Part shown: piece after piece, positions 789-11,507 of the stretch
Layout of the letters: each line of letters opens with the position of its first letter
Numbering within the stretch: the stretch's first letter is position 1
Virus record (IMG/VR): IMGVR_UViG_3300010388_000228
Location: 1-64,000 of that record
DNA length: 64,000 nt
From: a virus
Strand: one strand, 5' to 3'
The notes under the pieces: generated by a model
The model's database searches: none
The model's input: the letters and a program-made list of their open reading frames with translations, nothing else
What the model was told of the DNA's origin: nothing
Position numbers and translations under genes: made by a program

Positions 789-983
789 ATGATAATCACA
801 TTACATAGAGTAGTTCATAAATCAACAGTAGAAATTGTAACACACGAAATGGATATTAAAGTAGCGGCTATCACAGCATTCCACGATGGGTTTATAGTAG
901 CAGGTGGCCATCAATTCAATGTAGTAGAGTCTAGATACGAAATCAATCAAAAGATTACAGAGTCAGGTGCAGTATGGGACTAA
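789..983 (+). CDS. small hypothetical protein (FlbD-like pattern), similar to 11508..11696
   Basis: MIITL...FNVVESRYEI pattern; AAGGA RBS. Confidence 0.55.
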   Translation: MIITLHRVVHKSTVEIVTHEMDIKVAAITAFHDGFIVAGGHQFNVVESRYEINQKITESGAVWD

Positions 984-1348
984 TACCAGATAACCCATAT
1001 CCATCTAAGCCAAGCTCATACTTTTCAAAAACAATCATTAGCAATAGCGATATGCAAGAGTTAAAAACTGGCATTAGCGAGAAGATGATCAAGCCATTGC
1101 TTAGATGGGCAGGTAGAACTATGCTAAACGTAGAAGTAGCTCCTAGATCCGAAAATAAAATGACATTTGACGAAGCTCAAATGTATATCCTATTCTGCCG
1201 GTATAATGGTAAGAAGAACTGGCGTCTACCTACAAGGCATGAATGGGAAACAATATATGGATGGGAAACACCTGTATGGCTCGTTGAAAAAGACAATGTA
1301 GTTATCGACGAAATGTGGTACGTACAGCCAGTTAGGGATACAAAGTGA
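974..1348 (+). CDS. DUF1566-like array member 1 (N-terminal extension)
   Basis: EVAP..TFDEAQMY..NWRLPTRHE..PVRD. Confidence 0.75.
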   Translation: MGLIPDNPYPSKPSSYFSKTIISNSDMQELKTGISEKMIKPLLRWAGRTMLNVEVAPRSENKMTFDEAQMYILFCRYNGKKNWRLPTRHEWETIYGWETPVWLVEKDNVVIDEMWYVQPVRDTK

Positions 1349-1590
1349 TTGAATTGGCACCACTTGAGTTATGGAAATACGACTTAAACAAAGTAGAAGC
1401 TAAGATGGCAATTTTTATGACAAAAGGTTATAGAATTGGAACCCTTGAAGAAATGAATTCTCTAAAAGACGATATACTATCAATAGATGATACTATGTGG
1501 GACGCATGGACATTAGATGCAGTACACAGTGACAACGTTCCGGACACAGAAACTGGAACGTTGATTCCAATAAGGACTAAACAATGTTAG
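1345..1590 (+). CDS. DUF1566-like array member 2 (divergent)
   Basis: IELAP..GYRIGTLEE..PIRT; GTG start overlapping upstream stop. Confidence 0.65.
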   Translation: MIELAPLELWKYDLNKVEAKMAIFMTKGYRIGTLEEMNSLKDDILSIDDTMWDAWTLDAVHSDNVPDTETGTLIPIRTKQC

Positions 1591-1823
1591 AATATGGTAA
1601 GAAATCAGAAAACGACTTAGACTATGATGGGGCATATATGTATTGCTTTTGGCATGAGCCAGTAGGCACTTGGAGACTTCCAACTGAACAGGAATACTTC
1701 CAGACAATGCTACGCTACCCAGGTAACGTAATACCTAAATGGTACGAAGACAGAGATCAGCTTGAAGAGAAGATCTTTCAACAACCAGCTAAAATGCGTG
1801 TAGTGCCTGTACGATCACTATGA
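1584..1823 (+). CDS. DUF1566-like array member 3
   Basis: YDGAYMYC..WRLPTEQE..PVRS. Confidence 0.75.
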   Translation: MLEYGKKSENDLDYDGAYMYCFWHEPVGTWRLPTEQEYFQTMLRYPGNVIPKWYEDRDQLEEKIFQQPAKMRVVPVRSL

Positions 1824-2080
1824 TCCAAGTCAGTTACTATGCTAACAATATACGGAATCACTATCCAATTGAAGTAGCACCGACTTCTAACGAAATGATG
1901 ACATACGAAAACGCTAAACTCTATGTTCTGTTCTATGAACACAACGGACATAGAGATTGGAGACTGCCTACGTTACAAGAATGGCTTAGCCATAACCCGC
2001 CACTAATAGGGTGGGATGATCATGGAGATGATAGTACTGATATAGTCCGTTATGTAACCCCAGTGAGAGATATAAAATGA
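1820..2080 (+). CDS. DUF1566-like array member 4
   Basis: IEVAP..DWRLPTLQE..PVRD. Confidence 0.75.
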   Translation: MIQVSYYANNIRNHYPIEVAPTSNEMMTYENAKLYVLFYEHNGHRDWRLPTLQEWLSHNPPLIGWDDHGDDSTDIVRYVTPVRDIK

Positions 2081-2316
2081 TCGAACTAGCACCCGAAACA
2101 CATTGGCTTACGCATTGTACACAAGATGAAGCATCCATGTATATCTTGTTTCAAAAAGGCTGGCGCCTTCCTAAAATAAAAGAACTTAATCAAGTAAGAA
2201 AATTGTTAGGAGTACGCTATATTGTAATATGGACTCAAGAAGCTGTAAGCAACTTTGAAAGTAATCAGCTGATGTATATTAAAGCACGAGTAATCCCAGT
2301 GAGGGACGTATGCTAA
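2077..2316 (+). CDS. DUF1566-like array member 5
   Basis: MIELAP..GWRLPKIKE..PVRD. Confidence 0.75.
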   Translation: MIELAPETHWLTHCTQDEASMYILFQKGWRLPKIKELNQVRKLLGVRYIVIWTQEAVSNFESNQLMYIKARVIPVRDVC

Positions 2317-2738
2317 AAATGGCTGAGCCATCACCGCATGCCTTATCGTACGACGATGCCTGGCTCTATTGTGCAACTTGTACAGCTGATAGATATTATG
2401 ATTGGCGATTACCTACTTATAATGAGTATCAATCTAACCAATTGCGTAACAGCTACGGTTGGACTGAGGATAGCGACTACAGAGGTAAAATACGAACTTT
2501 CCCAGTAAGGAGTATGAAAACAATTGAAGGCCCAGTATCTATTCCACTACCGTATGACGAAGCTTGGCTATATTGTGCTACCCTAACCCGTGATAACAAA
2601 TACGATTGGCGGATGCCTTCTAGTTTAGAATACAATGATTTAAGTATGGGTAAAACTTGGTATATAGAACGGTTAATGGCCTATAAAAAGAATGATAATA
2701 TCGGCAAGTTGAAAGTAGTACCACTGAGAACTATATGA
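2310..2738 (+). CDS. DUF1566-like array member 6, two fused domains
   Basis: Two AWLYCAT..YDWR.P units; internal AAGGAG plus in-frame ATG at 2514. Confidence 0.8.
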   Translation: MLKMAEPSPHALSYDDAWLYCATCTADRYYDWRLPTYNEYQSNQLRNSYGWTEDSDYRGKIRTFPVRSMKTIEGPVSIPLPYDEAWLYCATLTRDNKYDWRMPSSLEYNDLSMGKTWYIERLMAYKKNDNIGKLKVVPLRTI

Positions 2739-2953
2739 TTGAACAAGCAGACAAGAATAAGACAAAATTTTTGTATGATGACGCATGGCTCTATTGTGCT
2801 ACCCTAACCCAAGATAACAAGTATAATTGGCGCATACCTACGTTTAATGAATGCTCAAAGTATAATATGGATTCGCATTGGGACACGCGGCCTAGCGAGT
2901 CTTATGCGTACAGAGGTGTTGCATGGTACATAACCCCAGTGAGAGACTTATGA
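2735..2953 (+). CDS. DUF1566-like array member 7
   Basis: AWLYCATLT..YNWRIPT..PVRD. Confidence 0.8.
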   Translation: MIEQADKNKTKFLYDDAWLYCATLTQDNKYNWRIPTFNECSKYNMDSHWDTRPSESYAYRGVAWYITPVRDL

Positions 2954-3156
2954 TTGAACAAGCCCTAAGAACAGATTATGGTATGTGCTATGACTCTGCA
3001 TTCGTATACTGTCTAACATTAGATTATAATGGCCATAAAGATTGGCGATTACCTACACTTGATGAATATGCATCTTCAAACATAACCCGTAGCTGGTATG
3101 AAGGCCGCGAACGCGATTGTTTTAATTGGGCAGCTACCCCAGTGAGAGACCTATGA
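2950..3156 (+). CDS. DUF1566-like array member 8
   Basis: Start reassigned to ATG 2950 (ATGA overlap, MIEQA); KDWRLPT..PVRD. Confidence 0.8.
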   Translation: MIEQALRTDYGMCYDSAFVYCLTLDYNGHKDWRLPTLDEYASSNITRSWYEGRERDCFNWAATPVRDL

Positions 3157-3380
3157 TTAAACGAGGCCCAGGGTCACCTAAAAGATTATGCCACGACGAC
3201 GCCTGGCTATATTGTGCTACCCTAACACATGAGAACAAATACGATTGGCGTATGCCCAATCGTTCAGAACACACCTCTATTCCACCTAGTACTTGGTTTG
3301 ATGGTAGGTTTTCTCAGTATTCAGAGTATCATACTAGCATGTCAATGTCTGTAACCCCAGTGAGAGAAATATATGATTGA
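3153..3380 (+). CDS. DUF1566-like array member 9
   Basis: Start at ATG 3153 (ATGA overlap); AWLYCATLT..YDWRMP..PVRE. Confidence 0.8.
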   Translation: MIKRGPGSPKRLCHDDAWLYCATLTHENKYDWRMPNRSEHTSIPPSTWFDGRFSQYSEYHTSMSMSVTPVREIYD

Positions 3381-3579
3381 ACGAGCTCCAAGAACAACTT
3401 ATGAAATGTGCTATGACTCTGCATTCTTATACTGCCTAATATTAGAATATAAGGGACATAAAGATTGGCGAATACCTACTGAAGAAGAATATTCAACTTT
3501 AACAATTTCATACGGTTGGCATGAAGGCCGGGAGTGGAGTGCCTTTAAATGGGGAGTTACCCCAGTGAGAGACATATGA
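3373..3579 (+). CDS. DUF1566-like array member 10 (close paralog of member 8)
   Basis: MCYDSAF.YCL..GHKDWR.PT..EGRE..PVRD. Confidence 0.8.
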   Translation: MIERAPRTTYEMCYDSAFLYCLILEYKGHKDWRIPTEEEYSTLTISYGWHEGREWSAFKWGVTPVRDI

Positions 3580-3794
3580 TTGAATTATACGAATATCCTA
3601 AATCATTAAAAGTAAGCTATGCGGACGCTGAACTGCTATCTTGGACTTGTACACACAACAACAAGTATGATTGGAGACTTCCTACAAAGTGGGATGATAT
3701 CCCATTCATTATGCAAGTTGAATGCTGGAATCCAACTGGCTCACCTTACGAGTTTGAATACAGAAAGTTTAGACCGGTAGTATTAGTAAGATGA
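3576..3794 (+). CDS. DUF1566-like array member 11
   Basis: Start at ATG 3576; WTCTHNNKYDWRLPT. Confidence 0.8.
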   Translation: MIELYEYPKSLKVSYADAELLSWTCTHNNKYDWRLPTKWDDIPFIMQVECWNPTGSPYEFEYRKFRPVVLVR

Positions 3795-4003
3795 TTGAAA
3801 TAGGACCATCACTACACAAAGTTGATTATGATACTGCTTGGTTATATACCGCCACTCTAACACATAAAGACAAATACGATTGGCGATGGCCTACACTCTC
3901 TGACTTTCGTCATGTCCATAATATCCCAAATTCAATATGGTATCAAGGCTATCTTCCTAACCAATTAGACACACGAAAGATATACCCAGTGAGAGACATA
4001 TGA
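3791..4003 (+). CDS. DUF1566-like array member 12
   Basis: AWLYTATLT..YDWRWPT..PVRD. Confidence 0.8.
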   Translation: MIEIGPSLHKVDYDTAWLYTATLTHKDKYDWRWPTLSDFRHVHNIPNSIWYQGYLPNQLDTRKIYPVRDI

Positions 4004-4230
4004 TTGAAACTGCTCCAGTAAGTAAGGTTACACTACCATTTGACATCGCATGGATGTATGTGTTATTATTAGACTATAACAACAAAAAAGACTGGCGATT
4101 ACCAACCTTTGATGAAATTTTAGAAAATGATAGCCTACAAGTTGGAGTATGGACTAAAGAATACATTGACTCAAGCCCAGATTATTCTAAATGGTTTAAA
4201 AAACCAGTAACTCCAGTGAGAGACATATGA
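4000..4230 (+). CDS. DUF1566-like array member 13
   Basis: MIETAP..KDWRLPT..PVRD. Confidence 0.8.
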   Translation: MIETAPVSKVTLPFDIAWMYVLLLDYNNKKDWRLPTFDEILENDSLQVGVWTKEYIDSSPDYSKWFKKPVTPVRDI

Positions 4231-4451
4231 TTGAAACTGCTCCAGTAAGTATAGATACACTACCATTTGACATAGCATGGCTCTATTGTGCTACCCTAAC
4301 ATATGATAACAAAAACGACTGGCGATTTCCTACATTTGGTGAATATGTATACGATCTTAATACAATAGTGGGTGTATGGCATGAGAGTGATAGTAACAAT
4401 CGCACCAGCTTTTCACGATACGCACAACCAGTAAGGACCAAAGATGATTGA
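4227..4451 (+). CDS. DUF1566-like array member 14
   Basis: MIETAP..AWLYCATLT..DWRFPT..PVRT. Confidence 0.8.
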   Translation: MIETAPVSIDTLPFDIAWLYCATLTYDNKNDWRFPTFGEYVYDLNTIVGVWHESDSNNRTSFSRYAQPVRTKDD

Positions 4452-4677
4452 AACTGCGCCAGTAAGTGAGGATAAACTAACATTTGACGAAGCCTGGCTG
4501 TATGTGTTATTATTAGACTACAACAACAAAAAAGACTGGCGCTTACCCGAGTTTCTTGAATATATGCACGAATACGATGTTAATAAAACAGGGTTCCTAT
4601 GGTTTTTGGACACTACTCCTGCCAACATTCACAGCCTCACCCGCCGCACACTACCAGTAAGGACTAAAGATGATTGA
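4444..4677 (+). CDS. DUF1566-like array member 15
   Basis: MIETAP..KDWRLP..PVRT. Confidence 0.8.
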   Translation: MIETAPVSEDKLTFDEAWLYVLLLDYNNKKDWRLPEFLEYMHEYDVNKTGFLWFLDTTPANIHSLTRRTLPVRTKDD

Positions 4678-4900
4678 ACACGCGCCGTTAGTCAAATACC
4701 TTAGTATAGATGAAGCTGAACTATACACAATGACACTTACCTATAACAACAAGTATGACTGGAGAATTCCTACTATACCTGAACTAAAAACAATACCAAG
4801 GCATTTTCTACCTGTATGTTGGCATCAACATGATCTTATAGCACCACGGCTTGAAGATATGAAATGCGGAGTAATAGCAGTGAGGACTAAAGATGATTGA
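4670..4900 (+). CDS. DUF1566-like array member 16
   Basis: MIEHAP..YDWRIPT..AVRT. Confidence 0.8.
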   Translation: MIEHAPLVKYLSIDEAELYTMTLTYNNKYDWRIPTIPELKTIPRHFLPVCWHQHDLIAPRLEDMKCGVIAVRTKDD

Positions 4901-5096
4901 AGCAGCGCCTTTTTCACCATTGATGGCATACGACGATGCATTCTTATATGCAATAACCTGTACACATAACGACAAGTATGACTGGCGAATACCTGTTCCT
5001 AGTGACTTCTCCAACAAATTAGCTGCTAAACCAAGAACACTAGGTCAACGCCGCAAAATACAATTTTGCCCAGTAAGAGGATCAATAGATGATTGA
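4893..5096 (+). CDS. DUF1566-like array member 17
   Basis: MIEAAP..YDWRIP..PVRG. Confidence 0.8.
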   Translation: MIEAAPFSPLMAYDDAFLYAITCTHNDKYDWRIPVPSDFSNKLAAKPRTLGQRRKIQFCPVRGSIDD

Positions 5097-5334
5097 AATG
5101 GGACCAATAATTACAACACATCATGTTGACTACGATACCGCATTGTTAGCTACCATAACCTGTACGTTCGGCAATCACTATGATTGGCGTGTGCCTACAG
5201 ACGACGAATGGATAAGTTATGGTTGGATAAAAAGTTGGACTTGGAACGAATCTCGCATGGCTAGATATTCAGGTATTCCTCATGAGGATATCGTATCGTA
5301 TGCACTTTGCATAGTAAGGAATAAAGATGAGTAA
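5089..5334 (+). CDS. DUF1566-like array member 18
   Basis: MIEMGP..YDWRVPT..IVRN. Confidence 0.8.
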   Translation: MIEMGPIITTHHVDYDTALLATITCTFGNHYDWRVPTDDEWISYGWIKSWTWNESRMARYSGIPHEDIVSYALCIVRNKDE

Positions 5335-5542
5335 GTATATAGAAATAGCCCCTACCACTACTCTGTTTACGTATGACGAAGCATGGCTCTACTGTGCTAC
5401 ATTGACTCATAATGGCAAATATAATTGGAGAATACCTACCGAAAACGAGTATTTAGATTATGAGATTGATGGTTGGTTAGATGAAGAAAAAGACGACTAC
5501 GTGTTGTGGCCTCAACAAGTAACCCCAGTGAGAGATGTATGA
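5327..5542 (+). CDS. DUF1566-like array member 19
   Basis: IEIAP..AWLYCATLT..YNWRIPT..PVRD. Confidence 0.8.
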   Translation: MSKYIEIAPTTTLFTYDEAWLYCATLTHNGKYNWRIPTENEYLDYEIDGWLDEEKDDYVLWPQQVTPVRDV

Positions 5543-5778
5543 TTGAAATAGGTAAAACAACAGCCGTTGCGCTTGACTATGACACTGCATGGCTTTATAC
5601 TATTACTTCAACTTACAACAACAAATACGATTGGCGAATGCCATCTTGGTACGAATGGGGCGTATATACGGTCATTCCACAAGATGCATGGACCGATAAC
5701 CTTACTCCTGTTGATCAGTGGGGAAACCTAATTTATAACTTTGGTACCTTAGTGAGAGATATTAAAGATGATGTTTGA
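5539..5778 (+). CDS. DUF1566-like array member 20
   Basis: Start at ATG 5539; YDWRMPS..LVRD. Confidence 0.8.
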   Translation: MIEIGKTTAVALDYDTAWLYTITSTYNNKYDWRMPSWYEWGVYTVIPQDAWTDNLTPVDQWGNLIYNFGTLVRDIKDDV

Positions 5779-5989
5779 ATATGCAACGCATAGTGAAGAG
5801 TCAGTTAGCTTTGACCAAGCATGGCTCTATTGTGCTACTTGTACACATAAAGACAAATACGATTGGCGTTTACCAACACACAAAGAATGGATTATGAATG
5901 ATATCCCATATTATGTTTGGTTTAATGATCGTTTTGCCGTTGCTGCTGAAGTGTACAGTGTAGTACCAGTAAGGGGGTATGAATGGTAG
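5768..5989 (+). CDS. DUF1566-like array member 21
   Basis: AWLYCATCT..YDWRLPT..PVRG. Confidence 0.8.
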   Translation: MMFEYATHSEESVSFDQAWLYCATCTHKDKYDWRLPTHKEWIMNDIPYYVWFNDRFAVAAEVYSVVPVRGYEW

Positions 5990-6237
5990 TTGGCCCACAC
6001 TCAACAATACAACTAACTGCAGAAGAAGCTGACCTGTTTATTTGGACTTGCTCACACAATAACAAATACGATTGGCGAGCCCCATCTGCCCATGAATGTA
6101 CTAGATCAAGATTTAATAAAACCGCAAATATGACTTGGACAACTTACCGACTTATCGTTGCCGATGAAGCCTCCAGAAGAGGATATGGTGACGCTAGGTT
6201 CTTTGCAGCCACAGTGAGAGATAATAATGGCATTTGA
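5983..6237 (+). CDS. DUF1566-like array member 22
   Basis: WTCSHNNKYDWRAPS..TVRD. Confidence 0.8.
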   Translation: MVVGPHSTIQLTAEEADLFIWTCSHNNKYDWRAPSAHECTRSRFNKTANMTWTTYRLIVADEASRRGYGDARFFAATVRDNNGI

Positions 6238-6838
6238 TATACAACCGTTGTTTGCAAACCCAGTACTTACAACTATTCCGGACGGTATGGTAACACCTTA
6301 CTATAATGCAATTAACCATTGCAAGGCATTAGATTATTATATCAATGTAGGACGTAACTTAACAAGCAGCGATACAAAGATACTAGATCATCCAGTATTT
6401 GTAGAAATTAACGATCTGATACAACATGCGATTAATCAATATGCACATGACATAATGAAATGGGATAACGTTGAGCTTTATGTTACCCAATCTTGGATCA
6501 ATATTAACCCTAAAGGTACCGAACATCATAGTCACTATCACCCAAATAGCGTAATTAGTGGTGTATTCTATCTTCAAACAGTTACTGATGATTCTATTGT
6601 GTTTCGAAACGATAACTGCTCGTTACCATTTGAATTTGATAGAACTGAGTATAACATATGGAATTCTAATATATGGAGGATTCCTGTATCTACTAATGAA
6701 ATTGTGATTTTTCCATCAAGCCTGTGGCATAGTGTTGATACCCACGATGATGATGTTGATAGGATTAGCATTGCATTTAATGTATTCTTCCGAGGCCATG
6801 CCGGTGGTGAAATTCGATTAACTCACTTACCCTTATGA
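6227..6838 (+). CDS. 2OG-Fe(II) oxygenase (TIGR02466-like)
   Basis: SWININ..HxHPNSVISGVFY..IFPSSLWHSV..RISIAFN. Confidence 0.85.
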   Translation: MAFDIQPLFANPVLTTIPDGMVTPYYNAINHCKALDYYINVGRNLTSSDTKILDHPVFVEINDLIQHAINQYAHDIMKWDNVELYVTQSWININPKGTEHHSHYHPNSVISGVFYLQTVTDDSIVFRNDNCSLPFEFDRTEYNIWNSNIWRIPVSTNEIVIFPSSLWHSVDTHDDDVDRISIAFNVFFRGHAGGEIRLTHLPL

Positions 6839-7071
6839 TTGAACACGCACCTGAAACCCCTATACACAATATAGAACTTACTGAACTATTTGCTTGGACT
6901 TGTACACACAACAACAAGTACGATTGGCGAGTGCCTACCATACTAGAACAAGAGCAATCTAAAAAAGATAAGTGTAGGCTTGCAACCGTGTATTATGATG
7001 AAACTGAAGCCGGCAGGCTACCCATTACATACACCAACACTGCTAAGTTTATCCCAGTGAGAGACGTATGA
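6835..7071 (+). CDS. DUF1566-like array member 23
   Basis: MIEHAP..YDWRVPT..PVRD. Confidence 0.8.
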   Translation: MIEHAPETPIHNIELTELFAWTCTHNNKYDWRVPTILEQEQSKKDKCRLATVYYDETEAGRLPITYTNTAKFIPVRDV

Positions 7072-7286
7072 TTGAAATAGCATACAAAAGCCGAGATAAA
7101 CTATGCAAAGACCCAGCTTGGCTCTATTGTGCCACTTGTACACACGATAACAAGTATGACTGGCGACTTCCAACTGATCATGAACTTAATACTGATGAAC
7201 TGCTAAACTCCAGTTATCAATTTACTTGGGCAGAAGACGATATGGCCGGCTATGTCCTATACGCAATCCCAGTGAGAGACTTATGA
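7068..7286 (+). CDS. DUF1566-like array member 24
   Basis: AWLYCATCT..YDWRLPT..PVRD. Confidence 0.8.
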   Translation: MIEIAYKSRDKLCKDPAWLYCATCTHDNKYDWRLPTDHELNTDELLNSSYQFTWAEDDMAGYVLYAIPVRDL

Positions 7287-7510
7287 TTGAACAAGCACCT
7301 CGATCCCCTAAACTATACAGAGACGAAGCATTCCTGTGGGTTTGGACTTGCTCACACAATAACAAATACGACTGGCAACTTCCAATCAGACACGACGCTA
7401 GCGACGGCTGGAATAGCTGGAATGCTTACAAATTGAATATGTTTGAACACGACAAATCGTACGAATGGATGCACTGGCCAATCACACCCGTGAGAACTAC
7501 TAATGATTGA
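7283..7510 (+). CDS. DUF1566-like array member 25
   Basis: Start at ATG 7283; YDWQLP..PVRT. Confidence 0.8.
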   Translation: MIEQAPRSPKLYRDEAFLWVWTCSHNNKYDWQLPIRHDASDGWNSWNAYKLNMFEHDKSYEWMHWPITPVRTTND

Positions 7511-7709
7511 ACAAGCACCAAAACTTAAACAAGAGCTGGATTATGACGAAGCTTGGCTTTACTGCGCCACACTAACCCACAATAACAAATACGACTGGCG
7601 CCTCCCTACACATAAAGAATACATGAGCCACGAACACATCGTAGGTTGGTTTAAACACAGAGATAGCTGGGGAGACTTCCCAATTATACCCGTGAGAGAC
7701 AAACTATGA
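7503..7709 (+). CDS. DUF1566-like array member 26
   Basis: AWLYCATLTHNNKYDWRLPT..PVRD. Confidence 0.8.
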   Translation: MIEQAPKLKQELDYDEAWLYCATLTHNNKYDWRLPTHKEYMSHEHIVGWFKHRDSWGDFPIIPVRDKL

Positions 7710-7954
7710 TTATCGAACAAGCTCCCCCATCACTCCAACCCCTGTCTATAGAAGATACCTTCTTATACACTATAACTTGCTCACACAACAACAAACACGA
7801 CTGGCGTCTCCCCACCCATAAAGAGGTAGCTTACTATGCTTTGAACAACTGCTGGCGCAATATTGATAGCGACGATAACAATGACTGGGCTAAGACTAGA
7901 TGGCACAATTGGAGTTCTCGCTATGTGTGTATCCCCGTGAGAGACAAACTATGA
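7706..7954 (+). CDS. DUF1566-like array member 27
   Basis: IEQAP..HDWRLPT..PVRD. Confidence 0.8.
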   Translation: MIIEQAPPSLQPLSIEDTFLYTITCSHNNKHDWRLPTHKEVAYYALNNCWRNIDSDDNNDWAKTRWHNWSSRYVCIPVRDKL

Positions 7955-8190
7955 AAGAAACCGCCATACAATCTAAACATAAACAAACCCAAGACGAAGC
8001 GTTCTTGTACATTATAACCTGTACACATAACAATCATTACGACTGGAGATTCCCTACTATATACGAATTTATATATAGTGGATTTTTTACTAATCGAGAT
8101 GTTTGGAATATTGAGAATGTGAATAATCCGTATCTTAATATAGTAAAAGTGAAATATATGACTCTTCCTATTAGAGATATAAAGAGATAA
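7951..8190 (+). CDS. DUF1566-like array member 28
   Basis: Start at ATG 7951; YDWRFPT..PIRD. Confidence 0.8.
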   Translation: MKETAIQSKHKQTQDEAFLYIITCTHNNHYDWRFPTIYEFIYSGFFTNRDVWNIENVNNPYLNIVKVKYMTLPIRDIKR

Positions 8191-8213
8191 TGCAACACAT
8201 CCATTGCATACAC

Positions 8214-8468
8214 ATACTATAGTAAGAATAACGATAATAATAACTCTTTACATACCATAACACACTATAGTATAATAAGCAATAGTTACAGCAATCCAAA
8301 CTATAGTAACAGTAAACGCTATAGTATAATAAGTATGCCTAACTATCCACACTATAGTATAGACTATAGTGATAATACTAATGATCCACGCTATAGTAAG
8401 AGAATCATAGAGGTTCCCTATAGTAGCGTATAAGAGAACCCTGACTATAGTAAAAACTATAGTATAGA
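8214..8468. repeat. AT-rich non-coding cluster of about 10 palindromic CTATAG (ACTATAGT) motifs
   Basis: CTATAG recurs roughly every 10-50 bp; no ORF of 60 aa or more. Confidence 0.75.
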
Positions 8469-8777
8469 GATGAAAGCGAGGCCTGCAAAAAATTTTTTGA
8501 AAAAGGTTAACAATAGATGAGGCCTATGGTGGTTACAGGAGATATTGTTAACCAATGGCAGCAGGCCTGCAGGAATTATGAGGTTTTTGGAGGTTTTGGC
8601 AAAAGTATGACGCAAGTATGGTGGTATTCATTGTAGCTATGCCGTCCAACCACCCATTCCTGCTATATCGTTACAGTTATATTACAGTGGTAAAATTGTG
8701 CCAAAACAGTGCTTTACAATACCAAAACAGTGTGCTATACTATGCACATATTAACAAACTAACTGGAGCGTACCAAA

Positions 8778-8955: not shown

Positions 8956-9018
8956 TTGACACTCTATACTATACTATAGTATAATAAACACTTACTAACA
9001 CACAATGCGGAGCGCAAT
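8956..9018 (+). promoter_or_regulatory. sigma70-type promoter plus conserved leader (cttactaacacacaatgcGGAGCG)
   Basis: TTGACA..TATAAT; the same leader precedes the ATGs at 61, 10430, 11508 and 12904. Confidence 0.75.
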
Positions 9019-10429: not shown

Positions 10430-10732
10430 ATGAAGTTATGCAATGTACCACAAGACTTATTAGCAAAGCAAGCAATGATAGATACTATTCCAGACATGAT
10501 TTGGATAGCACTAATAGTAACCTTGCTTAGTGGACTATACTATATGTATAAGAGGTTACGGGCAGATGATGCATTAGATCCAAAGGATGATGTAGCAATG
10601 GGATTCTTTCTTATAGTATTAACTATCGGCGGAGCACTGTTGTCAGCCGAGTTGCTCAAACATATCATAACCGCATTCCTTAATCCAGAGTATGCAGCAA
10701 TGGTTAAGTTTACTGCAGAGTGCGTCAAATGA
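10430..10732 (+). CDS. hypothetical membrane protein (2 TM)
   Basis: Start at 10430 after promoter and GGAGC; two hydrophobic helices. Confidence 0.65.
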   Translation: MKLCNVPQDLLAKQAMIDTIPDMIWIALIVTLLSGLYYMYKRLRADDALDPKDDVAMGFFLIVLTIGGALLSAELLKHIITAFLNPEYAAMVKFTAECVK

Positions 10733-11277
10733 TCCGCGCTGCCATTCTCGCTACTATAGTAGTAATGCCGATACATGCGGATGTGTATCGGTATACAGGA
10801 GCAGATGGGAGAGTTTGGTTAACTGATCATCCACAAGAGATCGCAACATCTGCCAAACCTACTACTATAGTAAAGAAACCGGAGACTCGCCCACTAACTC
10901 GATGGGAGATCAACCACTATGTTCATGCTGCGGCAAAGAAGTATGGAGTGGATGAGAAGTTAGTTCATGCAGTCATTAAAACGGAAAGTACATATCGTAA
11001 ATCGGCTGTAAGTAAGAAGGGAGCAGCTGGATTGATGCAGCTGATGCCAGCAACGGCAGAGCGATTTGGTGTGAGTGATCGGATGGATGAGCGGCAGAAC
11101 ATAGAGGGCGGAGTCCGGTTCCTAAGGTTCTTGCTCGATACATTCAAAGATACCAAACTAGCGGTTGCCGGATACAATGCGGGCGAGCATGCGGTAATGC
11201 GACATAAGAACCGGATTCCACCATATCCGGAAACCCGAAACTATGTGGGATTGGTAATGGCGGCATACACTGAATAA
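10729..11277 (+). CDS. secreted soluble lytic transglycosylase (SLT) with DUF4124-like N-terminus
   Basis: Signal peptide; ADVYRYTGADG..TDHP; AVIKTES, GAAGLMQLMP, AGYNAGE, PPYPETRNYV. Confidence 0.9.
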   Translation: MIRAAILATIVVMPIHADVYRYTGADGRVWLTDHPQEIATSAKPTTIVKKPETRPLTRWEINHYVHAAAKKYGVDEKLVHAVIKTESTYRKSAVSKKGAAGLMQLMPATAERFGVSDRMDERQNIEGGVRFLRFLLDTFKDTKLAVAGYNAGEHAVMRHKNRIPPYPETRNYVGLVMAAYTE

Positions 11278-11507
11278 CAAACCAGTTGACAACCAATGCG
11301 TAGTTTGCTATACTATGCGTGTACTATATATAAGAGGAGCAAGCAATAATGTCGTTTTTATATAATTTCGCAGTGTTTACTACTATAGTATTACTAAGTG
11401 TAATCGCGTTATTGAACTGGTATGAGTTAGTGATTTAAAAAGTTCTTTACAAACCAAAGTTAGTTTGTTATACTATACACTTACTAACAAGCAATGCGGA
11501 GCGTACA

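Follow-up and report, generated by a model that had tools for sequence, protein, structure and literature searches.

In a 64-kb window of viral DNA, i.e. the whole stretch that was analysed, we found a tandem array of 28 intact genes at 974-8190 (+ strand). The window comprises the first 64 kb of the 98,182-bp IMG/VR viral contig IMGVR_UViG_3300010388_000228. The genes carry 29 copies of one small domain, as the gene at 2310-2738 is a fusion of two. This mini-domain is a truncated, stand-alone offshoot of the Lcl_C/DUF1566 family with a compact C-type-lectin-like (CLec) fold; it is not a canonical family member. With moderate confidence we read the array as an early, cytoplasmic repertoire of specific binders, generated by a lineage-specific Lcl_C expansion. 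The anatomy, the fold and the evolution are, in our judgement, very probably described correctly. The function as an intracellular binder repertoire, concerned with host takeover, counter-defence or competitor targets, is proposed tentatively, as the most likely of the functional readings. The bearer of the array is an uncultured jumbo myophage lineage. The minus strand of the contig codes for a large terminase, a 1,149-aa tail sheath, DnaB and other helicases. Among cultured phages, PA5oct-type Pseudomonas jumbo phages (53% amino acid identity) and the 469-kb Sinorhizobium phage Phosso have the terminases closest to this one. CheckV assigned the contig a completeness of 27%; therefore, the genome should measure about 360 kb.

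All 29 domain copies matched the family profile nearly end to end (E 3.5e-11 to 2.7e-30), with domain envelopes of 65-82 aa. Internal stop codons were absent; the TGA in 3576-3794 is the terminal stop codon of that gene itself. Without exception the array genes overlap their predecessors by 4-11 nt, mostly as ATGA. A search of the 98-kb contig with the family profile returned no copy outside the array, and syntenic arrays are present in independent assemblies of related phages. Such an array is far beyond chance. The original prediction, which was made from the sequence alone, had listed 28 open reading frames between these coordinates, three framework blocks and only intact copies, and all of this was borne out. 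The count of 28 frames stood, yet the bookkeeping needed correction: there are 29 domains, an oxygenase gene is located inside the array and six starts had been misread. The six longer-looking frames (2923, 3126, 3549, 5506, 7226 and 7900) are out-of-frame read-ins; the read-in peptide NPSERLMIE is TPVRDL-stop read with a shift of one base. The genes begin instead at MIE-type ATG codons (MKE at 7951), which overlap the preceding stop by 4 nt. With these starts 26 genes code for 67-86 aa, the exceptions being the first gene (124 aa) and the fusion (142 aa). The only PHROGs match of array members was phrog_16004, a group of unknown function in PHROGs.

The consensus of the copies (alignment A1) reads MIExAP...DxAxLYxxTxTHNNKYDWRxPTxxE...W...PVRD. 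Only A17, W32, R33, P35, W49 and R65 are near-invariant, and W32, R33 and P35 are conserved in at least 90% of the copies. E39 is located six residues past R33 and forms an Arg-x5-Glu pair with it. In the C-terminal domain of the Legionella protein Lcl (Lcl-CTD) the highly conserved DUF1566 residues are mostly in the core (PMC11162425), and by analogy the near-invariant residues of the mini-domain probably constitute its scaffold. Mean amino acid identity between paralogues was 35% at the N-terminus, 46% in the core and 49% at the C-terminus. It was 11.5% in the loop segment, which runs from WR.PT..E to PVR and varies from 19 to 36 residues; judged by the alignment, loop identity between paralogues is at the random level. 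The sole conserved residue in this segment is one core Trp. Aromatic residues (W/Y/F) make up 16% of the loops, and loop net charge ranges from -8 to +6. The pI of the domains spans 4.1-9.1, which ruled out a uniformly acidic DNA-mimic character. We also considered MIE as a T4-type capsid-targeting or prohead-protease signal. This was dropped because the motif has three residues and forms strand β1. Catalytic residues are not conserved; therefore, we regard the proteins as binders and not as enzymes. As predicted, no array member has a signal-peptide-like or transmembrane stretch (two nearby genes, at 226 and 495, do carry them). As a sign of an intracellular as opposed to a virion role this is uninformative, because phage virions assemble in the cytoplasm.

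AlphaFold2, run on the 29-copy alignment with the member at 7503-7709, returned a model at pLDDT 93.4 with the order strand, helix, helix, ordered loop region, strand. The scaffold was assigned as MIE (β1), AWLYC (helix 1), WR.PT..E, one core Trp and PVR (β5). The top 50 structural matches were all C-type-lectin-like domains (CTLDs), among them Lcl-CTD, TvpA and the C-terminal domain of Bdellovibrio Bd2740. The best Foldseek match in BFVD was a DUF1566 protein from an uncultured phage (probability 0.97, TMq 0.70). Foldseek against the PDB found nothing at E<=1e-3, and the weak matches there were CTLDs. The profile had no significant match to PDB sequences; the best relevant ones were OvoA, Lcl (HbP1) and TvpA at E 0.5-1.8. 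The modelled fold has the features of a CTLD, namely paired N- and C-terminal strands, two helices and a significant superposition on known CTLDs. Those of a canonical Ca2+-dependent C-type lectin were not found: a conserved Cys pair for disulfides is absent, and the EPN/QPD and WND motifs are not conserved. According to the model, the loop segment between helix 2 and the last strand would take the place of the long-loop, ligand-binding region of a full-length CTLD, a location that is deduced from the fold. Thus, the variable segment that had been predicted from WR.PT..E to the PVR strand at the C-terminus was recovered both in the alignment and in its probable position on the structure. The two-domain fusion was modelled as two folded units with no confident interface (pLDDT 80, pTM 0.51). 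This model neither supports nor argues against packing of neighbouring domains.

The relationship to Lcl_C emerged from several comparisons. When nine domain-bearing members were scanned with Pfam, eight had a sub-threshold Lcl_C match and the member at 1345 had none; the matches to PF07603 were confined to profile positions 10-58 of 117. Alignment by hhalign with 80 true Lcl_C repeats gave a probability of 97.7% (E 1.7e-12) over 42 columns in the N-terminal half. Giant bacterial proteins that hold 4-17 Lcl_C repeats were also matched by the array profile, with E values as low as 8.5e-36. Pfam confirmed 4-10 Lcl_C repeats in the scanned matches (P0007, at E 4.7e-28, among them); the strongest multi-repeat match, P0003 at E 8.5e-36, was outside the scanned set. 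The nearest ESM Atlas clusters are viral Lcl_C proteins. The WRLPT..E core is present with the Arg-Glu spacing of the family: the conserved salt bridge Arg338-Glu344 of Lcl has the same spacing as R33-x5-E39 of the mini-domain (PMC11162425), and a salt bridge is predicted here too. A full-length Lcl_C domain has about 105-150 aa and extends over the C-terminal half of the profile. Because only the N-terminal half aligns and the domains have 65-82 aa, we classify them as a truncated offshoot, and the proposed CLec-like, DUF1566/Lcl_C-related fold was confirmed in this form. In the related phage G003 a 169-aa full-length Lcl_C protein (330313-330819, L005:15313-15819) is encoded among mini-copies and scores 57 bits, above the Pfam threshold. 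Several other G003 copies near it have long envelopes of 96-97 aa. Together, the 169-aa protein and these copies look like intermediates between the canonical and the mini form. Two-domain fusions arose repeatedly in other metagenomic phages (P0002, P0004, P0005, P0006, P0010, P0013, P0048 and P0064; alignment A3). Their junctions each retain a PVR...IE.AP pattern, which fits a loss of the ATGA stop/start overlap.

The array genes have no internal promoters and no + strand terminators above chance. The operon head (1-60, +) has a -10-like TATACT at 22-27 and, at 33-55, a 23-nt leader, CTTACTAACACACAATGCGGAGC, which includes the Shine-Dalgarno sequence GGAG. An exact copy of this leader is present at 8991-9013 and one with two mismatches at 11480-11502 (+); by chance no copies are expected. 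At 8956-8985 a perfect sigma-70 consensus promoter (TTGACA-18-TATAAT) precedes the second copy. The leader stands ahead of at least three transcription units. Because of this promoter-leader cassette, the synteny of the four leader genes and the lack of a + strand terminator in the array, the operon is probably an early unit of the host-RNA-polymerase type. The array constitutes the distal 7.2 kb of this early-type sigma-70 unit, which measures about 8.2 kb. The contig begins at the operon head, and the genome may hold more copies ahead of it; in G003 such copies are found at 319-341 kb.

Within the operon the end of each domain serves twice. For Val-Arg in PVR the genes retain GTGAGAGA or GTAAGGA, i.e. 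GTG or GTA followed by AGA or AGG, for which GTTCGTGA-type codons would be a synonymous alternative to GTGAGAGA. The PVR arginine is AGA or AGG in 27 of 28 copies, the WRLPT arginine in 7 of 28 (Fisher p=3e-8), and the PVR valine is GTG in 17 of 26 copies as against a genome background of 5% (p=1.5e-16). GAGA or AGGA was found 7-12 nt ahead of 23 of the 27 downstream family-gene starts examined. Because the PVR codons constitute the Shine-Dalgarno sequence of the next gene, the last scaffold strand is dual-coded. With the overlaps this sets the genes up for coupled translation. Framework conservation is explained in part by this second role of PVR as ribosome-binding site of the next gene.

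Next to the present phage (G000, or G0 in the comparisons below), the family profile matched 44 times in the 88.6-kb contig G001 (G1), 47 times in G003 (G3), a complete genome of 372,016 bp with terminal repeats, 25 times in a 47.6-kb contig and 10 times in a 38-kb fragment. When the domains were extracted, the counts were 45 in G001 and 48 in G003. The arrays of the relatives thus hold 25-48 copies, with differing content. As in the present phage, the main array of G003 is followed by an ATPase gene and by what is probably the lytic transglycosylase (SLT) gene. In a library of 1.84 billion proteins, 1,707 cluster representatives matched at E<=1e-3, most of them 68-90 aa long. They are located on contigs of up to 355-372 kb, and those with a named source are nearly all called hypothetical. 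A junction DNA probe matched four IMG/VR contigs only. In 50,697 GenBank phage records tblastn found nothing with a single member (E<=1e-3) or with the two-domain member (E<=1), PA5oct and Phosso had no match to the array profile, and megablast of the first 12 kb found no match. Among bacterial genomes of 185k species the WRLPT core matched ordinary Lcl_C only; the mini form was not found.

The history of the copies was followed in a quick IQ-TREE tree of 79 columns. The copies of G1 and G3 pair one to one. In the present phage, members with orthologues are found towards either end of the array and, in small number, within it; the majority of internal members are unique, and only 6 of its 29 members have a partner of at least 60% identity in G3. 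Identical arrays, which would have told against the original prediction, were thus not seen. Even G1 and G3, at a dS of about 0.15, are different in 6-9 copies and in local order. The cassette order differs between 358193-360298 of G003 and 82543-83581 of G001, and a block of 5-6 cassettes is present in G003 alone. Because order differs at this dS, rearrangement within arrays must occur on a short time scale. Traces of recombination were also seen inside single genes. In the member at 4227, codons 1-13 resemble the members at 4000 and 4444 (85-92% of nucleotides), and codons 14-27 resemble those at 2520, 2735 and 3153 (76-81% versus 52-57%). The members at 4000 and 4444 are 83% identical in the framework and 33% in the loops, which is the random level (p=9e-13). 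On these alignments the mosaicism is real, and the array turns over by duplication, copy gain and loss, local reshuffling and short gene-conversion tracts. Duplication and recombination, as originally proposed, can therefore be demonstrated in the tree, in the mosaics and in the comparison of arrays.

dN/dS was determined at profile-aligned positions. In 39 orthologue pairs of G1 and G3 it was 0.16 in the core and 0.37 in the loops; in six pairs of G0 and G3 (dS about 1.1) it was 0.10 and 0.14, respectively. Overall values were 0.13-0.24. These ratios indicate that orthologues are under purifying selection in every segment, loops included; drift is not what they reflect. 'Hypervariable', the term used in the original prediction, thus holds between paralogues and fails within orthologue lineages. 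An antibody-like system with fast mutation has to be abandoned; instead, the array looks like an old set of fixed specificities that gains and loses members.

How might such a set work? The array proteins would be made together and early by the host RNA polymerase, would stay in the cytoplasm, and each might bind one particular target via its own loop face. Candidate targets are those of host takeover or counter-defence and macromolecules of competitors or of the phage. A more pointed version, which is possible and on balance doubtful, sees the array as a germline-encoded repertoire for counter-defence and host takeover. Each protein would be a stoichiometric inhibitor of, or decoy for, a different host or competitor molecule, all released in one early polycistronic burst, and the clade would tune its host range by gain, loss and recombination of cassettes. 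Several points weigh against an early intracellular repertoire. In members with orthologues the loops are under purifying selection, and this speaks against a fast arms race there. The -35 region of the operon's own promoter is lost at the contig end, and the early timing is read solely from promoter and leader similarity. The PF07603 scores of 13.8-25 bits for single-domain members and 30 bits for the two-domain member are below the gathering threshold of 34.9. To our knowledge, DUF1566 and CLec proteins are mostly extracellular adhesins, and we know of no characterised precedent for a cytoplasmic role.

This last point leads to the virion. The mini-domains could be interchangeable adhesin tips or decorations whose scaffold face docks on a fibre or the capsid, thus widening or switching adsorption. 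CLec and DUF1566 domains are classic receptor-binding tips, Bd2740 and TvpA are among the top structural matches, virion proteins do not need a signal peptide, and the conserved strands at the two termini lie side by side, as they do in stalk-mounted domains. Yet the array is part of an early-type sigma-70 operon of small + strand genes, the replication and structural block is about 12 kb away and divergent to it, and the members have no docking or trimerisation extension. Further, PA5oct, the nearest cultured relative with a virion proteome, lacks the family. We consider a virion role unlikely. The products might also be subunits of a single hetero-oligomer in which coupled translation supplies near-equimolar neighbours that pack together. 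The universal gene overlaps and the repeated origin of fusions between neighbours fit this, and Lcl-CTD, the type DUF1566 domain, is a trimer (PMC11162425). A fixed complex, however, is hard to square with arrays that share as little as 6 of 29 members at 60% identity or more (G0, G3) or are 6-9 copies apart (G1, G3). Moreover, to judge from the hhalign alignment, Trp315 of the Lcl trimer interface has no conserved counterpart in the mini-domain. A hetero-oligomer is thus very unlikely.

Alternatively, the proteins could be strict lectins whose ligands are not proteins but glycans of the cell envelope or the precursors of these, or which, once the cell has lysed, act on debris and neighbouring cells. 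Lcl-CTD binds sulphated glycosaminoglycans and DUF1566 has been proposed for carbohydrate recognition (PMC11162425). The loops are rich in aromatic residues, and the operon opens with a secreted Cys-rich protein and a membrane protein. Against this, the Ca2+/carbohydrate motifs EPN/QPD and WND are not conserved, the loop segments have one core Trp in common and nothing else, an export signal is missing from the members and the span of loop charges fits many unlike ligands. This makes a pure lectin function quite unlikely. That the array might be near-neutral tandem amplification or the debris of one giant adhesin gene with many Lcl_C repeats, its members having no functions of their own, is suggested by the giant repeat proteins among the strongest long profile matches and by the quick shifts in copy number between relatives. 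The selection data largely refute it. All 29 copies are intact and nearly full length, overall dN/dS is low, each gene has its own start codon and a selected Shine-Dalgarno sequence, orthologues persist across a dS of about 1.1 and the mini form is shorter than any canonical repeat. This explanation is hardly credible.

Finally, CLec is the standard scaffold of the targets of diversity-generating retroelements (DGRs), and TvpA, such a target, is a top structural match. A DGR target protein is recognised by a reverse transcriptase, a template/variable repeat pair and adenine-specific differences; this combination was not found. An RVT_1 reverse transcriptase is absent from the present contig, from G001 and from the complete 372-kb genome of G003. 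Loop differences between close orthologues were distributed over codon positions 1/2/3 as 54/41/68 and were dominated by transitions. NNY codons were not in excess (54% versus 51%). Thus, the loops have no DGR footprint, be it of codon position, NNY or adenine type, and a DGR origin was rejected; diversification without a reverse transcriptase, as first suggested, was upheld. A DGR supplied in trans by the host or a co-infecting element might still write the loops now or have done so recently. To this we attach next to no weight: in addition to the missing enzyme and the preponderance of third-position changes and transitions, loop lengths vary (19-36 aa), a difference that DGR mutagenesis does not make, and loop dN/dS is 0.14-0.37. 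The early intracellular repertoire of fixed binders remains the reading we prefer.

The members, all on the + strand, are in detail as follows. Member 1 (974-1348, 124 aa) is extended at its N-terminus, the domain itself beginning near 1121, and has orthologues in G1 and G3 at 80-82% amino acid identity. Member 2 (1345-1590, 81 aa) starts with GTG and is the most divergent copy; YRIGT replaces WRLPT, and orthologues are present in both relatives. So are those of member 3 (1584-1823, 79 aa; 83-85%) and member 4 (1820-2080, 86 aa; 87-89%). Member 5 (2077-2316, 79 aa) is followed by the fusion, member 6 (2310-2738, 142 aa; domains 2310-2519 and 2520-2735), and by member 7 (2735-2953, 72 aa). Member 8 (2950-3156, 68 aa) is a close paralogue of member 10 (3373-3579, 68 aa), with member 9 (3153-3380, 75 aa) between them. 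Member 11 (3576-3794, 72 aa) ends in PVVLVR and precedes member 12 (3791-4003, 70 aa). The mosaic trio consists of members 13 (4000-4230, 76 aa), 14 (4227-4451, 74 aa; the mosaic proper) and 15 (4444-4677, 77 aa). Orthologues in G1 and G3 were again found for member 16 (4670-4900, 76 aa; 64-67%) and for member 17 (4893-5096, 67 aa; 73-75%), which has the shortest loop, a basic one. Member 18 (5089-5334, 81 aa) is followed by the most acidic copy, member 19 (5327-5542, 71 aa, pI 4.1), and by members 20 (5539-5778, 79 aa), 21 (5768-5989, 73 aa) and 22 (5983-6237, 84 aa). The 2OG-Fe(II) oxygenase gene (6227-6838, 203 aa; PF13759, phrog_81) is translationally coupled on both sides. It is missing from G001 and from the complete G003, and was therefore rejected as a family member or an obligatory functional partner; we regard it as a lineage-specific insertion. 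Beyond it are members 23 (6835-7071, 78 aa), 24 (7068-7286, 72 aa) and 25 (7283-7510, 75 aa), then member 26 (7503-7709, 68 aa), which is the top match of the family profile and the modelled copy, and member 27 (7706-7954, 82 aa). Member 28 (7951-8190, 79 aa) is the last; in the tree it clusters with the genes that end the arrays of G1 and G3.

The four leader genes upstream of the array (61-222, 226-495, 495-737 and 789-983, all +) are syntenic in G001 and G003. The gene at 226-495 codes for an 89-aa Cys-rich protein with a Sec-type signal peptide and that at 495-737 for an 80-aa protein with one transmembrane helix. Both are kept in G1 and G3 and are candidates for envelope or superinfection-exclusion functions. 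A hairpin with a perfect 11-bp stem (GCGTAGTAGGC..GCCTACTACGC) and no U-tract is located at 746-769, between the third and the fourth leader gene. In G1 and G3 its stem is conserved and the loops differ; it could be an RNA processing or attenuation site. Directly 3' of the array, 8191-8470 is AT-rich and non-coding, with about 12 (A)CTATAGT(A) repeats followed by AGGCCT sites. The lytic transglycosylase gene (DUF4124-SLT; 10720-11277, +) is in an early-type region; at the same place after the ATPase gene G003 has a 194-aa gene of like size.

Among known systems the closest is Lcl-CTD of Legionella pneumophila (DUF1566, PF07603; PDB 8q4e). The N-terminal half is homologous, with WRLPT..E and the Arg-x5-Glu pair, and Lcl likewise has neither disulfides nor a Ca2+ motif (PMC11162425). 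The mini-domain, however, is about 40 residues shorter, and a private loop segment of 19-36 aa replaces the C-terminal half of the profile. In Lcl the Lcl_C domain heads a secreted, collagen-like trimeric adhesin, whereas the mini-domains are stand-alone and leaderless and occur in 29-48 copies per phage genome. With the DGR proteins TvpA of Treponema (PDB 2y3c; among the top three structural matches) and Mtd of the Bordetella phage the array shares a CLec scaffold whose C-terminal segment, immediately ahead of the last strand, may vary massively. Unlike these it has no reverse transcriptase, no template repeat, no adenine-type footprint and no constant loop length; its diversity is spread over many fixed genes and not invested in one rewritable gene. 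Thus, the scaffold of DGR hypervariation is used here in another way. The Lcl_C/DUF1566 family itself and lineage-specific expansion as a phenomenon are already known. In Bacillus phage G a ZnR family of about 35 copies was called unprecedented, and no CLec-fold (FGS) domains were found in 224 jumbo phages (Iyer et al., PMC7824862). With 29-48 copies per genome, in a clade of uncultured phages of about 360-370 kb, the arrays equal or exceed the phage G expansion; our literature search found no paper describing such arrays. Other multigene families are the MGF of African swine fever virus (ASFV), the CTLD paralogues of poxviruses and Ranid herpesvirus 3 and, in vertebrates, the Ly49/KLR CTLD clusters of the natural killer (NK) complex. 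Like the viral families the array consists of tandem paralogues that are gained and lost and differ in content between relatives; the Ranid herpesvirus 3 paralogues were even among the structural matches. In contrast to them its units are about 70 aa long, translationally coupled, equipped with a dual-coded ribosome-binding site and encoded by a bacteriophage. Other compact CTLDs, i.e. poxvirus A33/A35 (OPG161), Link modules and intimin/invasin D3, are extracellular or membrane-anchored, disulfide-bonded and of eukaryote-virus or host origin, and have no sequence relationship to the mini-domain. The latter is predicted to be a compact (about 70 aa), disulfide-free binder scaffold, apparently cytoplasmic, whose loops are naturally diverse. 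In addition, it provides a clean example of dual coding, in which a C-terminal strand is the ribosome-binding site of the next gene. If the targets are nodes of host defence and takeover, the arrays would be a catalogue of such nodes. If they indeed serve as a counter-defence repertoire, they would be the static, multi-gene counterpart of DGR diversification on the same fold.

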